The notes beneath the pieces were generated by a model. That model saw only the letters and a program-made list of their open reading frames with translations, had not been told where the DNA came from and made no database searches. The position numbers were made by a program, and so were the translations under genes. A stretch of DNA of 53,094 bases from Candidatus Yanofskybacteria bacterium RIFCSPLOWO2_01_FULL_49_17 (lineage in GTDB: Bacteria > Patescibacteriota > Minisyncoccia > 2-02-FULL-40-12 > GWA2-44-9): contig MGKO01000004.1 of assembly GCA_001795695.1 (NCBI GenBank), forward strand, positions 1 through 53,094, written 5' to 3'. Position 1 is the stretch's first letter, and every line of letters begins with the position of its first letter. Of this stretch, positions 34,307 through 49,286 are shown piece after piece.

Positions 34307-34377
34307 TTAGCTTTTTAGCTGATTAGCTTATTAGGGTAACCTAAAAAGCTAGTAAGCTGATAAGCTAGTAAGCTAAA
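34307..34377. repeat. H7 hairpin, AGCTAAT family
   Basis: ttagctttttagctgattagcttattaggg-taa-cctaaaaagctagtaagctgataagctagtaagctaaa, followed directly by the TTG start. Confidence 0.75.
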
Positions 34378-34845
34378 TTGAGACGTCCAGTCAAAAACAG
34401 AATTGAGATAGAGCCCGACCTGAAATATCAGAGCGTTTTGGTTTCCAAGCTCATCAATAAGATAATGAGCCGCGGCAAAAAGGCCTTAGCGACGCATATT
34501 GTTTATCGCGCCTTGGAGATATTAGAGCAGAAGACCAAAAAGCCGGCCTTGGAAGCTCTAGACATCGCCATCAATAACGCCGGACCGAACATGGAATTGA
34601 AATCGCGACGCGTCGGCGGCGCCAATTATCAGATTCCGATAGAGGTCAAACCGGAGCGCAAGACCGCCCTAGCCATCCGCTGGATGATAGAGGCCGCCCG
34701 TTCGGCCAAAGGCAAGCCAATGGAGGAGAAGTTCTCCGAGGAGATGCTGAACGCTTTCAATAACACTGGCGGCGCGGTCAAGAAGAAATTAGACACTCAT
34801 CGCATGGCGGAAGCCAACAAGGCCTTCGCCCATTTCGCCTGGTAA
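34378..34845 (+). CDS. rpsG: Ribosomal protein S7 (TTG start)
   Basis: S7 pattern: KLINKIMSRGKK..A..IVY.AL, and ANYQIPIEV. Confidence 0.9.
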   Translation: MRRPVKNRIEIEPDLKYQSVLVSKLINKIMSRGKKALATHIVYRALEILEQKTKKPALEALDIAINNAGPNMELKSRRVGGANYQIPIEVKPERKTALAIRWMIEAARSAKGKPMEEKFSEEMLNAFNNTGGAVKKKLDTHRMAEANKAFAHFAW

Positions 34846-34920
34846 GTAATCAGCTTCTTAGCTGATTAGCTGACTAGGGCAACCTAAGAAGCTAGTAAGC
34901 TGATAAGCTAGTAAGCTAAG
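34846..34920. repeat. H7 hairpin, AGCTAAT family
   Basis: Close relative of 34307-34377. Ends ..gctagtaagctaag followed by TTG. Confidence 0.75.
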
Positions 34921-37026
34921 TTGAGGGATTATCCGTTAAATAAAATTCGGAACATCGGCATCATCGCCCATATTGATGCCGGGAAAACGACCGTATCCGA
35001 ACGGGTGCTTTTTTATACCGGTATTTCGCATAAGATAGGCGAGGTCCACGAGGGCGACACAGTTATGGACTGGATGGAGCAGGAGCGCGAGCGCGGCATC
35101 ACCATCACCGCCGCCGCCACAACCGCTTTTTGGACACCTTCTGATGCGGAGGGGAATGTGGACAAAAAAGTCAAAATAAACCTGATAGACACTCCGGGCC
35201 ATATTGACTTTACTATTGAGGTGAAGCGCTCTCTGCGCGTTTTGGACGGGGCGGTAGTCGTCTTTGACGGCGTGGCCGGCGTTGAGCCGCAATCCGAGAC
35301 CAACTGGCGCTACGCCGACGATTATAAGGTTCCCCGTTTGTGCTTTATCAATAAACTGGACCGCCTGGGCGCTTCCTTTGACCGCTCGTTCCAATCCATC
35401 TTGGACCGTTTGTCTCCCAACGCGGTCAAAATGCAGATACCCAACGGCCACGAGGATAAGTTCATCGGCGTGGTGGACCTTTTGACCATGACCTTCGTCC
35501 AGTTTGAGGGGGCTAAAGGTGAAAAGGTGGTCCGTTCTGAAGTCCCGGCCGAACTGAAGGCCGAAGCCGAGAAGGAGAGAGCGGCTTTGATAGAAAAGAT
35601 AGTTGAGCACGACGACTCGGCCCTGCATGATTACCTTGAAGGCAAAGAGGTCCCAGTGGAGAGATTAAAGGAAATTTTGCGCAAAGCGGTTATCGCCGAC
35701 AAGATATATCCGGTCTTCTGCGGTTCGGCTCTCAAGAATAAAGGCGTCCAGCTGGTGCTTGACGCTGTGGCCGAGTACCTGCCCTCGCCTCTGGACATCC
35801 CGGCCAGTGTTGCCGTTGATAATGAAGGCAACGAGGTCAGGATAGAGCCGCGCGACGACGCGCCGTTTGCCGCCCTGGCCTTTAAGGTGGCTACCGATCC
35901 GTATGTCGGCCAGCTGACTTTCTTTCGCGTCTATCAGGGCGTTCTGACGGCCGGTTCCTATGTATATAATTTCACCTCCGGCCAGCAGGAGCGCATCGGG
36001 CGCATTGTCCGTCTGCACGCCAACCAGCGCGAGGAGATAAAAGAAATAGAAGCCGGCAACATTGCCGCCGCCGTGGGCCTGAAAGGTACCAAGACCGGCG
36101 ACACGCTCTGCGATCCGGAACATATCGTCAAACTGCGAGGCATTGAAGCACCCGAGCCGGTTATCTCCCTTCGCATTGAACCCAAGACCAAAGCCGACCA
36201 GGAAAAAATGGGCTTGGCCTTGCGCAAGCTTTCCGATGAGGACCCGACCTTCCGCATCCGCTCGGACGAAGAGACAGGAGACACCATCATTTCGGGAATG
36301 GGCGAGTTGCATTTGGATATTCTGGTTGACCGCTTGAAGCGCGAGTTCAGCGTCCAGGCCAATACCGGCCAGCCGCAGGTGGCCTACAAAGAGACCATCA
36401 CTACGGAAGCCCAGGCCGAAGGCAAATACATCAAACAGTCAGGCGGCCGAGGTCAGTACGGCCATGTTTGGCTGAAAGTTGAACCAATGGAGCGCGGCCA
36501 GGGCTATGAGTTCGTCAATGCCATCAAAGGCGGCGCCGTGCCAGAAGAGTTCATCAAGCCGACCGAAAAAGGCGTCCAGGAAGCGATGGACAAGGGTGTT
36601 GTCGCCGGCTTCCCATTGGTGGACATGAAAGTTACTTTCTACGACGGTTCCTACCACGAGGTTGACTCATCCGAGATCGCGTTCAAGATCGCCGGCCAGA
36701 TGGCTTTGCAGGAGGCATCCAAACGGGCCAAGCCGGTCTTGCTCGAGCCGATAATGAAAGTTGAGGTCATCGTGCCGGAAAAGTCCATGGGCGAAACCAC
36801 CGGCGACCTTGCTTCCCGCCGCGGACAGATAATTTCCGTCACCGACCGCTCGGCCGGCGTCAATCTCAAGGTTATTGAGGCCCGGGTGCCGCTTTCGGAA
36901 ATGTTCAGCTACTCAACCACGCTTCGCTCTCTGACCGAGGGCCGCGGCAATTACACCATGGAATTTGACCACTACGAACCCACGCCTTCCAATATTGCCC
37001 AGTTAGTGATAGAAGGAAAGAAATAA
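34921..37026 (+). CDS. fusA: Elongation factor G (TTG start)
   Basis: Motifs [22 protein letters not shown]; 701 aa. Confidence 0.95.
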
Positions 37027-37292
37027 TGGCTATTGAGATAAACGAATTAAAGCAGATGCTTAAGCACTCCACCGCGGTGCTTATATTGGATAACGGTGAC
37101 CCGTCTTTTGTAGTTCTGGATTACGCGACTTATAAAAGGATGCTTGAGGCCGAAACCGGCAATGGTTCGGTCACTACGGCGTCAAAAGGGCAATCATCCG
37201 AATCCGAACTCTTGGAAAGGATAAATAAAGATATTCTCGCTCTCAAGGAGCAGATAGAGGAGGAAGAAAAGAATCTCGGCCTCCAGGAGTAG
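37026..37292 (+). CDS. Small Phd/YefM-antitoxin-like protein with acidic coiled-coil tail
   Basis: N-terminal ..STAVLILDNGDPSFVVLDYATYKRM.. resembles the Phd/YefM fold signature. 1-nt overlap with the fusA stop. No toxin gene follows. Confidence 0.4.
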   Translation: MAIEINELKQMLKHSTAVLILDNGDPSFVVLDYATYKRMLEAETGNGSVTTASKGQSSESELLERINKDILALKEQIEEEEKNLGLQE

Positions 37293-37397
37293 GAACAAAC
37301 TCCTTATTGTTGATAGTCCTTAAGGATGGGGTTGACGCTTCTTAGGTTTTCGTCTAAAATGGATATTGCGCATTTTAATTAAACAGGTGATAGTTTT

Positions 37398-48037: not shown

Positions 48038-48073
48038 CCGCTAGTAATTAGCCATTAGCAACTAGAAAAAAAC

Positions 48074-48685
48074 ATGGAACCAGAAAAAATACAATCAGTT
48101 GAAGAGATAAAAACAGAAACGCCGGCGGCTGTTGTTCCGGCGTCTGAACAGCCGGCCAAGCAAGCTGATCAGCGCTTCGGCGGCCGGGGGCGCGGACGCG
48201 GCGGAGCGGGCGGACGCGGCGGACCCCGCCGTCGCATGCAGGGGGATCGGCCGAAATCTGAATTTGACCAACGGACGCTTGAGATCGGCCGCGTATCTCG
48301 CGTGACCAAAGGCGGCAAGCGTTTCAGCTTCCGCACCACTATCGTCATCGGCGACGGCAAAGGCAGGGTCGGCGTCGGTATGGCCAAGGGAAAAGATGTC
48401 CAGCAGTCAATTCAGAAAGCGACCAATCAGGCCAAGAAGCGCCTCATCACTGTCCCGATGATAAACGGCACCATTCCTCATCAGGTTGACGCAAAATACT
48501 CCAGCGCGGTAGTAGTGTTAAAGCCGGCCCGAGGCGGCGTTAAAGCTGGCGGTCCGGTCCGAGTGGTGGCCAAACTGGCCGGCATCCATGCTTTGACCGG
48601 CAAACTTATCAGGCGGACAAACAATAAAATAAACATTGCGATGGCCACAATTGAAGCGCTTAAAAAACTCAAAACAAGGAACTAG
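48074..48685 (+). CDS. rpsE: Ribosomal protein S5 (RGG-rich N-terminal extension)
   Basis: RVSRVTKGGKRFSFR..IVIGDGKGRVGVG.AK. Confidence 0.95.
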   Translation: MEPEKIQSVEEIKTETPAAVVPASEQPAKQADQRFGGRGRGRGGAGGRGGPRRRMQGDRPKSEFDQRTLEIGRVSRVTKGGKRFSFRTTIVIGDGKGRVGVGMAKGKDVQQSIQKATNQAKKRLITVPMINGTIPHQVDAKYSSAVVVLKPARGGVKAGGPVRVVAKLAGIHALTGKLIRRTNNKINIAMATIEALKKLKTRN

Positions 48686-48742
48686 GTGATAGGAAATAGG
48701 ATGATAGTCAGAAACTAGATTCCTATAACCTATAATCTAATT
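48686..48742. repeat. H7 hairpin (ATAGG / CCTAT family) where an L30 gene would normally sit
   Basis: ggtgataggaaataggatgatag .. ctagattcctataacctataatc. Confidence 0.6.
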
Positions 48743-49219
48743 ATGGAATTACATAATCTACAACCGAATACGCCCCGCAAGTACGGCAAGCGCGTCGGGC
48801 GCGGCGGCAAGCGCGGCACCACTTCCGGTAAAGGCACCAAGGGCCAGAAGTCGCGGGCCGGCGCCGGCGTCAAACCCGGTTTCCGCGGTGGCGACAACCG
48901 CTTGTGGCAGCTTTTCCCCAAGCAGAGGGGAGCTTCAAAGAAGCCCGGCTCTAACCGGCCGCACCGCAAACATCGCTTCTATCAGCTTCGCCACGACAAA
49001 TCCGCCGTTATAAATCTTGATGTCCTTAATCAGTTTGCCGAGGGCACCCTGGTCACCCCGGAACTATTGCTTGAAAAAGGCGTTATCATTAATACCGATA
49101 AAGGCGTGAAGATCTTGAGCGATGGAAACCTGAACCGCAAGCTGGAGTTCAAGGGCTTTGATTTCTCGGCTTCGGCCAAAGAGAAAATAATTGCTGCCGG
49201 AGGCAGCATCAGCAGCTAG
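48743..49219 (+). CDS. rplO: Ribosomal protein L15
   Basis: RVGRGGKRGTTSGKGTKGQKSR and GF.GG. Confidence 0.95.
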   Translation: MELHNLQPNTPRKYGKRVGRGGKRGTTSGKGTKGQKSRAGAGVKPGFRGGDNRLWQLFPKQRGASKKPGSNRPHRKHRFYQLRHDKSAVINLDVLNQFAEGTLVTPELLLEKGVIINTDKGVKILSDGNLNRKLEFKGFDFSASAKEKIIAAGGSISS

Positions 49220-49286
49220 CTTTTTAGCTGATTAGCTTATTAGGGTAACCTAAAAAGCTAGTAAGCTAGTAAGCTAATAAGCTAGA
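49220..49286. repeat. H7 hairpin, AGCTAAT family
   Basis: The 5' arm and loop are identical to 34311-34358. Ends ..taagctaga followed by TTG. Confidence 0.75.

Follow-up and report, generated by a model that had tools for sequence, protein, structure and literature searches.

The str/S10/spc ribosomal-protein operon of Candidatus Yanofskybacteria bacterium RIFCSPLOWO2_01_FULL_49_17 lies on the plus strand at 33860-50549 of the window, by which we mean the whole stretch of 53,094 nucleotides that was analysed (C4:1-53094, in a genome of 613,638 bp on 16 contigs with ~49% GC). Bare coordinates refer to the window, while other loci are given as contig and position. A number of spacers in this operon are filled by a hairpin whose arms consist of short tandem words, and elements of the same build occur elsewhere in the window, inside protein genes and in 23S rRNA. 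An earlier note on this DNA had seen such hairpins in almost every spacer of the operon and had suggested that they could be processing sites of the RNase III type, which would release near-leaderless cistrons for genes without Shine-Dalgarno (SD) motifs. Here we describe the hairpins, their absence from close relatives and their kinship with a family of gene-bearing cassettes, and discuss what they might be.

Word hairpins in the operon and in the genome

Each operon spacer was folded with RNAfold, and tandem words were called with Tandem Repeats Finder. At eight operon junctions this revealed a single long imperfect stem, formed by terminal inverted repeats whose arms are tandem words (Table 1). 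Over the word hairpins as a whole, the stems comprise 20-50 pairs. The hairpins are therefore real, but the description "almost every spacer" goes too far: 8 of ~24 operon junctions are clear by eye and 7 of 24 are picked up by an automated test. At rplC/rplD, rplF/rplR and rplX/rplE, which had been listed as hairpins, only weak stems or direct words are found. The rplR/rpsE spacer was rightly described as a direct repeat array without a partner arm; hairpins made of its TAGCCAT words are present at other sites in the genome.

The folding and periodicity checks that the earlier note had proposed both returned a clear signal. When spacers of 40-200 nt were compared with dinucleotide shuffles and with length-matched coding sequence, their folding energy showed a strong excess (median z = -2.55), with z < -3 in 46% of spacers versus 2.5% of the coding controls. 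The only enriched lags are 7 and 8, seen in 29 and 12 spacers as against ~1.9 each in shuffles. Genome-wide, 41 of 238 spacers of this size have period 7 or 8, where ~4 would be expected from shuffles. For the whole-genome search with RNALfold a periodicity filter was added, because coding DNA at ~50% GC yielded thousands of chance stems. The operon is enriched, with 7 of 24 junctions periodic versus 34 of 520 elsewhere (p = 0.001). Word hairpins thus cover roughly one third of the operon junctions and one sixth of the mid-sized spacers.

The word differs from spacer to spacer, as had been noticed, and includes TTAGCTNN, ATAGGNN, TCTAAAT, CGAATGN, TATGGAN and others. Most families have heptamer arms; the TTAGCT family is the exception, with a period of 8 and not 7 according to Tandem Repeats Finder. 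The many G:U wobbles ascribed to the arms could not be reproduced, as G:U makes up ~8% of stem pairs and is equally frequent on both strands. Several other features of the earlier description hold up well: the stems terminate 0-12 nt ahead of the start codon, the six sites that it had named between 6561-6673 and 33083-33150 outside the operon are built alike, the (CCTATAA) array at 16047-16099 is perfect over 7.6 units, and the stretches 34308-34358 and 49217-49267 are identical. An intrinsic terminator reading was considered and rejected. No word-hairpin stem has a T-tract on its 3' side and none was called as a terminator; within 33000-51500 the sole strong long-stemmed site is 50551-50577, after secY.

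The four TTAGCT copies in the operon align without gaps, except for one 4-nt indel just 5' of the start codon, and have the centre TAGGG(T/C)AACCTA in common. Since these copies are co-linear around a common centre, with a run of 51 bases identical between two of them, the gene-less form must itself have been copied. As for orientation, the ATAGG-family hairpins between co-directional genes (33083-48742) have their purine-rich ATAGG arm first along host transcription in 7 of 7 cases, as does a cassette on C11 that is described below. TTAGCT-family copies on C8 (C8:24421-24496 and C8:89244-89360) are in the opposite orientation.

Close relatives have empty junctions

For comparison we used two genomes of the same genus (G001 and G002) and one of the same family (G004), with ribosomal proteins 60-90% identical. 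The operon was taken whole from G002 and G004 and in part from G001. At the junctions that carry word hairpins here, these three genomes have spacers of 0-18 nt or overlapping genes and no hairpin; before tuf their spacer is longer, likewise without the hairpin (Table 1). This comparison of orthologous spacers had been set beforehand as a test, and its outcome speaks against built-in processing sites for SD-less, near-leaderless cistrons. Exact-protein look-up retrieved ten further assemblies of this population; over the operon their identity is at least 99.75%, and the hairpins in them do not differ.

On a broader scale, S12, S7 and EF-G were located in 30 related genomes, and no hairpin conservation across genera was seen at the S12/S7/EF-G junctions. 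In genomes further removed, S12/S7 and S7/EF-G carry hairpins that are built alike but made of other words, and these are therefore independent gains. Judged by these sequence comparisons, the hairpins present themselves as recent, dispensable insertions in this lineage and not as a conserved device.

Kinship with PF05635 cassettes

The genome contains five genes of the family PF05635 ("23S_rRNA_IVP"), with E values from 3e-35 to 1e-12, and one further match that is weak. Matches of their products include TIGR02436 (four-helix-bundle protein) as well as PDB 2gsc, while a match to the accessory variability determinant (Avd) family of diversity-generating retroelements is weak and below the cut-off. 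All five genes are bracketed by inverted word arrays and lie on the same strand as their neighbours, and the 3' arm of these cassettes mostly reaches the ATG of the next gene.

The arms of the cassettes recur in the gene-less hairpins. One arm of the C11 cassette is identical to 15968-15988 (21/21), in the left arm of the hairpin at 15968-16099, and to 48683-48700 (18/18), in the left arm at rpsE/rplO. The arms of the cassette at C7:46070-46520 correspond to the two arms of the 6561-6673 hairpin (6580-6603 and 6638-6667; 23/24 and 28/30 identical) and also to an insertion in the 23S rRNA gene (C4:60256-60286). Gene-less hairpins thus share terminal inverted repeats with a gene-bearing cassette of the same genome, the relationship by which miniature inverted-repeat transposable elements (MITEs) are recognised.

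An intermediate form is found in the window itself. The 36-residue mini-ORF (open reading frame) at 21845-21955 is related to the C11 protein at both ends: its first 26 residues match the N-terminus and its last 16 the C-terminus (tblastn; residues 2-27, E 2e-9, and residues 102-117, E 8e-4), and there is a match to the NCBIfam model NF008911 (positions 2-25, E 3.7e-4). Because the mini-ORF fuses the two ends of the protein, the element at 21812-21981 is a cassette whose gene has been deleted internally.

The association extends to other genomes. Within the order, 65 of 105 genomes have PF05635 genes, up to eight in a single genome; G001, G002 and G004, in which the junctions are empty, have none. 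When 28 further PF05635 genes were inspected by eye, complementary heptamer arrays were seen on both sides of most of them, each gene having its own words; in crude ORF calls, 28 of 29 share their strand with the upstream ORF. A PF05635 gene is present in 10/10 genomes with word repeats at S12/S7/EF-G (nine hairpins and one direct array) and in 6/20 genomes without them (Fisher p = 3e-4, although kin are not independent). Two genomes, G027 and G030, carry a complete cassette at S7/EF-G, where the genome described here has a bare hairpin.

Another possible driver would be the two Y1 transposase genes (IS200/RAYT type, PF01797) at C7:23806 and C7:32788, which might mobilise the hairpins in trans, in the manner of repetitive extragenic palindromic (REP) sequences and the REPIN elements composed of them. 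Hairpin DNA is indeed the substrate on which this class of enzymes acts. With no word array within 1 kb of either gene, and many unrelated word families in place of a single conserved palindrome, we regard such mobilisation as highly improbable.

Copies within genes and rRNA, and the behaviour of the arms

Word hairpins are also found inside genes. The insertion in rnhB (Table 1) accounts for residues 121-145 of the query; G002 and G004 lack them, and in G001 and G011 the match falls short by ~21 residues. In uvrC, a hairpin of CGAAATT/TTCGGAT words supplies a 30-residue in-frame segment that is absent in G002 and G004. The reading frame stays open through both insertions. Another 23 residues, in the DSEFSGVQAATKSQPENLLSWS region, have been inserted in frame in the uvrC gene (C16:6731-8218), and this second insertion is likewise specific to the lineage.

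In 23S rRNA, a word hairpin of 151 nt (C4:60166-60303) occupies a terminal loop, near position 688 in the large-subunit model of Rfam. The gene has four AT-rich hairpin insertions in helix loops altogether (C4:59434-59519, 59614-59729, 59824-59904 and 60138-60318); one is in the helix-9 region and another is the 151-nt word hairpin. A hairpin of the TCTAAAT family (C13:58058-58161) lies directly upstream of rnc, the RNase III gene at C13:58221-58616.

How do the arms change once they are in place? The arm at 16047-16099 exists in three population alleles, a degenerate arm and perfect arrays of seven and six units, which differ by 7 nt. Words are thus homogenised, and are gained or lost by slippage, once an element is in place.

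Slippage could also be made responsible for the hairpins as a whole. They would then be local microsatellites with units of 7-8 nt, the mirror arm arising by template switching, in a neutral expansion like that of the short tandemly repeated repetitive (STRR) sequences of cyanobacteria and without any mobile element. The words do vary by locus, solo direct arrays such as 48038-48073 do exist, and the perfect sevenfold arm with its sixfold and degenerate alleles is of the kind that slippage would leave. A local origin does not, however, account for four co-linear copies with a common centre, for arms common to PF05635 cassettes, for the decayed cassette in the window or for the co-occurrence of word hairpins and PF05635 genes across genomes. 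The words were, moreover, not seeded by ancestral spacer sequence. We therefore consider a purely local origin very unlikely.

Table 1. Word hairpins and related elements in the window, and the corresponding junctions in related genomes
Element	Position	Details	Junction in relatives
In-frame hairpin within rnhB (RNase HII, 2098-2820), GTATCNN words	2441-2541	~25 extra residues	
Gene-less hairpin, TCTAAAT/ATTTAGA family	6561-6673		
Hairpin, ATAGG family	15968-16099	nested GC-rich palindrome; homogenised (CCTATAA)x7.6 arm	
Hairpin, TATGGA/TCCATA family	20445-20518	weak stem	
Decayed cassette, TTAGCT arms	21812-21981	+ strand; 36-aa mini-ORF (21845-21955)	
Hairpin, CGAATG family	22653-22722		
Hairpin, ATAGG family	33083-33150		
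rpsL/rpsG hairpin, TTAGCT family (period 8)	34307-34377	-31.4 kcal/mol; from just after TGA stop to 9 nt before TTG start	9 nt in G001 and G002, 18 nt in G004; ATG start
rpsG/fusA hairpin, TTAGCT family	34846-34920	-27.0 kcal/mol; TTG start	genes overlap (TAATG) in G001 and G002
Hairpin before tuf, ATAGG/CCTAT family (period 7)	~37385-37450	3' part of spacer	108-112 nt, without the hairpin
rplB/rpsS hairpin, ATAGG family	41868-41932		5 nt in G002, 1 nt in G004
rpsS/rplV hairpin	42287-42352	terminal word TTAGCT, then ATAGG words	5 nt in G002, 2 nt in G004
rpsQ/rplN hairpin, TTAGCT family	44548-44628	-34.7 kcal/mol; z = -7.4	4-5 nt
rplX/rplE hairpin, CGAATG family	45407-45490	weaker, two words per arm; start TCCTAATC common to 22653-22722	14 nt in G002, 1 nt in G004
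rplR/rpsE direct array, (TAGNNNN)x4	48038-48073	TAGCCAT-type words; no partner arm	
rpsE/rplO hairpin, ATAGG family	48686-48742	left arm 18/18 identical to left arm of C11 cassette (48683-48700)	10 nt in G002
rplO/secY hairpin, TTAGCT family	49220-49286	TTG start; 51 identical nt common to rpsL/rpsG copy	16 nt in G002; ATG start

Translation starts and the mRNA strand

The earlier note was right that SD motifs are missing although the 16S rRNA keeps its anti-SD sequence. [quoted passage not shown] The short spacers of the relatives (TACCT, TTACC, TACC etc.) have no SD motif either. Since hairpin-free relatives are equally devoid of it, the lack of SD motifs is a lineage trait that is unrelated to the hairpins. 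The promoter-like TTTCCA-16-TACAAT of nrdJ (26818-26848) ends 9 nt ahead of the ATG, as had been reported. ACC(T) directly 5' of the ATG recurs at nrdJ and in many of the short G002 spacers.

A structure that acts in the message might be expected to fold better on the mRNA strand. To compare the two, 36 curated hairpins were folded on both strands, 32 of which have a defined sense strand. For these 32 the summed folding free energy is -706 for the sense and -713 for the antisense strand, with 68 versus 74 G:U pairs, and the better-folding strand is the sense strand in 18 cases and the antisense strand in 14. Nothing here suggests selection on the mRNA strand, with no sense-strand excess of either G:U pairs or folding. 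The proposed design for near-leaderless processing loses a further support here, the mRNA strand folding no better than its complement.

Start codons themselves are affected at some junctions. S7, EF-G and SecY start with TTG (window 34378, 34921 and 49287) directly after a TTAGCT hairpin, where the relatives use ATG; TTG starts immediately behind word hairpins or cassettes are also seen in other lineages (loci L008, L016, L020, L022, L029 and L084). Across the 30 genomes, TTG occurs at 9 of the 15 junctions that contain a cassette, a word array or a word hairpin, and at 0/42 others. The TTG codon is possibly the scar of insertion into overlapping stop and start codons.

These observations bear on the most obvious functional explanation, namely that the hairpins are RNase III-type processing sites that yield cistrons with short leaders for SD-less translation. 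Several points favour it: stems of 20-30 pairs abut start codons, the genome encodes RNase III (rnc) and lacks SD motifs throughout, word hairpins are overrepresented among the ribosomal-protein genes, and the related intervening sequences of rRNA are cut mid-stem by RNase III (PMC4990558). On the other hand, congeners are equally SD-less and yet have no hairpins, the mRNA strand has no advantage in folding or G:U pairing, no hairpin is conserved across genera, and the same elements lie in frame within ORFs, where cleavage would destroy the message. A processing function is accordingly unlikely to be what the hairpins are for.

Other elements in the operon spacers

Several structured elements in the operon are distinct from the word hairpins: those at tuf/rpsJ and rpsJ/rplC, the cassettes with CCCCCTC arms and a set of 85-nt elements. 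The tuf/rpsJ spacer contains a GC-rich hairpin (38661-38716), and G002 and G004 carry a hairpin at the same place. The structure appears to be conserved there because the relatives' hairpin differs in sequence. The rpsJ/rplC spacer is a structured region of 243 nt (39041-39283), with counterparts of 216-218 nt in G002 and G004 whose sequence is still recognisable. No match to it is found in Rfam, and it may be a ribosomal-protein leader.

Three cassettes (42901-43008, 43731-43886 and 46866-47018) have CCCCCTC(C/T)TT / AAGGAGGGGG (GAGGGGG) arms and enclose a TAGACA-17-TATAAT-like promoter. Three near-identical 85-nt elements at rplN/rplX (44995-45085), rplE/rpsN (46037-46118) and rpsN/rpsH (46320-46410) are bounded by the 13-nt inverted repeats CCCGTTAGAAATC / GATTTCTAACGGG just ahead of the ATG. 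G002 and G004 lack both the CCCCCTC-armed cassettes and the 85-nt elements. A solo CCCGTTAGAAATC is found in the adk/map spacer (51272-51290). Between fusA and tuf, an 88-codon ORF (37026-37292) overlaps the fusA stop codon and is kept in G001, G002 and G004; its match to Phd/YefM antitoxins is weak (E 1e-4, below the cut-off).

A possible origin of the word hairpins

Taken together, the empty junctions of the relatives, the shared arms and the decayed cassette point to one explanation: the hairpins probably derive, as MITE-like forms that have lost the gene, from a selfish foldback cassette of the intervening-sequence (IVS) type, and invaded this lineage recently. We put the probability of this at roughly 0.7.

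The course of events can be read from the elements. The cassette lies in sense, immediately after a host gene, and extends to the start codon that follows. When its gene is deleted internally, a mini-form such as 21812-21981 and further a bare hairpin result, and bare hairpins are themselves copied to new sites. Copies are found where they are not lethal, at gene junctions once 0-18 nt long, in frame within ORFs and in a 23S rRNA terminal loop, and their arms drift through gain, loss and homogenisation of whole words. The contact of the hairpins with stop and start codons would follow from the tiny size of the original spacers, in which only codon-preserving insertions survived. Where an insertion separated the A from the TG in an overlapping TAATG or TGATG, the element's final base would have become the first base of the start codon, giving TTG. 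In the polycistronic mRNA the arms would pair and so keep stop and start codons close, and the paired arms would offer RNase III a substrate, as the intervening sequences of rRNA do. Cleavage of the hairpins by RNase III is plausible, since IVS stems are cut in mid-stem (PMC4990558) and an rnc gene is present.

Some points weigh against a derivation from selfish cassettes. No mobility enzyme was identified, and no pair of filled and empty sites is close enough to define exact ends or a target-site duplication, given that the population contigs, at least 99.75% identical, are all filled. Many word families of this genome come without a matching full cassette, and some of them could be local in origin. 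The matches that link hairpin arms to cassettes cover short stretches (18-30 nt) of low-complexity sequence, the counts across genomes are drawn from phylogenetically non-independent relatives, and the orientation test rests on crude ORF calls. We also know of no catalytic or transposase activity for the PF05635 protein.

A more far-reaching idea is that PF05635 cassettes with word-array arms constitute a general and as yet undescribed class of mobile elements, of which the classical 23S intervening sequences would be the best-known members. Such elements would prefer heavily transcribed DNA, such as rRNA genes and ribosomal-protein operons, and always insert in sense. The words would provide the binding register of a multimeric four-helix-bundle protein that drives copying, possibly via an RNA or single-strand intermediate, and the gene-less hairpins would be its MITEs. 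This is speculative, and in its full breadth rather unlikely to be correct.

Relation to known repeats

The closest relatives of the word hairpins among described systems are the intervening sequences of 23S rRNA that contain an S23p/23S_rRNA_IVP (PF05635) ORF, for example in Coxiella burnetii, whose stems are RNase III substrates (PMC4990558). In the Candidate Phyla Radiation (CPR), both short ORF-less and PF05635-bearing insertions are known from rRNA genes (PMC11270868). Like these, the elements described here have terminal inverted repeats and a long stem that surrounds a small PF05635 gene or nothing; one copy lies in a 23S loop, and copies are sporadic, dispensable and selfish-looking. 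They differ in that most copies lie in mRNA spacers and ORFs, in the tandem 7-8-nt words of their arms and in the multiplication of gene-less copies. We found no published account of a PF05635 cassette or of bare hairpins in mRNA spacers or ORFs.

Selfish palindromes in a reduced genome, located in frame in essential protein genes as well as in intergenic DNA, bring to mind the Rickettsia palindromic elements that Ogata et al. reportedly described in 2000. These are said to form families of 100-150 bp with a fixed consensus and without word arms or an associated gene, whereas tandem-word arms and a cassette gene are found here. Abundant hairpin-forming extragenic repeats are also a hallmark of REP sequences, bacterial interspersed mosaic elements (BIMEs) and REPINs; the word hairpins differ from them in having no association with a Y1 gene, no single consensus and a tandem-word build.

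In architecture, the earlier note's likening of the hairpins to cyanobacterial STRR sequences proved apt. Nostocales have STRR repeats as well as a P6b stem in the trnL intron that is built on TDNGATT or NNTGAGT heptamer motifs (PMC4476775). Both systems form stems from complementary 7-nt motifs, change in length by whole units (±7 nt) on one or both sides and arrive at the same structure with several motif classes. Here, however, the phylum is another one and the words are not the consensus words of STRR1-3 or of the trnL intron; the repeats are also linked to a protein-coding cassette, and their insertion sites are gene junctions and ORFs. Direct TAACTGA repeats occur in marine Beggiatoaceae, some cyanobacteria and Bacteroidetes (PMC4679880). 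They too form heptamer arrays a few nucleotides upstream of starts that lack a canonical ribosome-binding site, including those in ribosomal-protein operons, and some lie within ORFs. Unlike this single word, which is repeated directly and forms no hairpin, many words in inverted arrays are used here. Our search of the literature on heptamer repeats in Patescibacteria found nothing relevant.

Implications

For annotation, the insertions mean inflated spacers, changed stop codons and C-termini, ATG starts turned into TTG and additional peptide segments in essential enzymes. They also call for caution, as a hairpin beside an SD-less start codon resembles a designed expression signal, where the survivorship of insertions into minimal spacers offers the better explanation. 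Finally, where the intervening sequences of rRNA and their S23p/IVP gene come from, and how they move, has been debated since the 1990s. This question becomes tractable here, because the full cassette, a decayed cassette and the bare hairpin occur side by side in a single 0.6-Mb genome, in mRNA spacers, ORFs and 23S rRNA.

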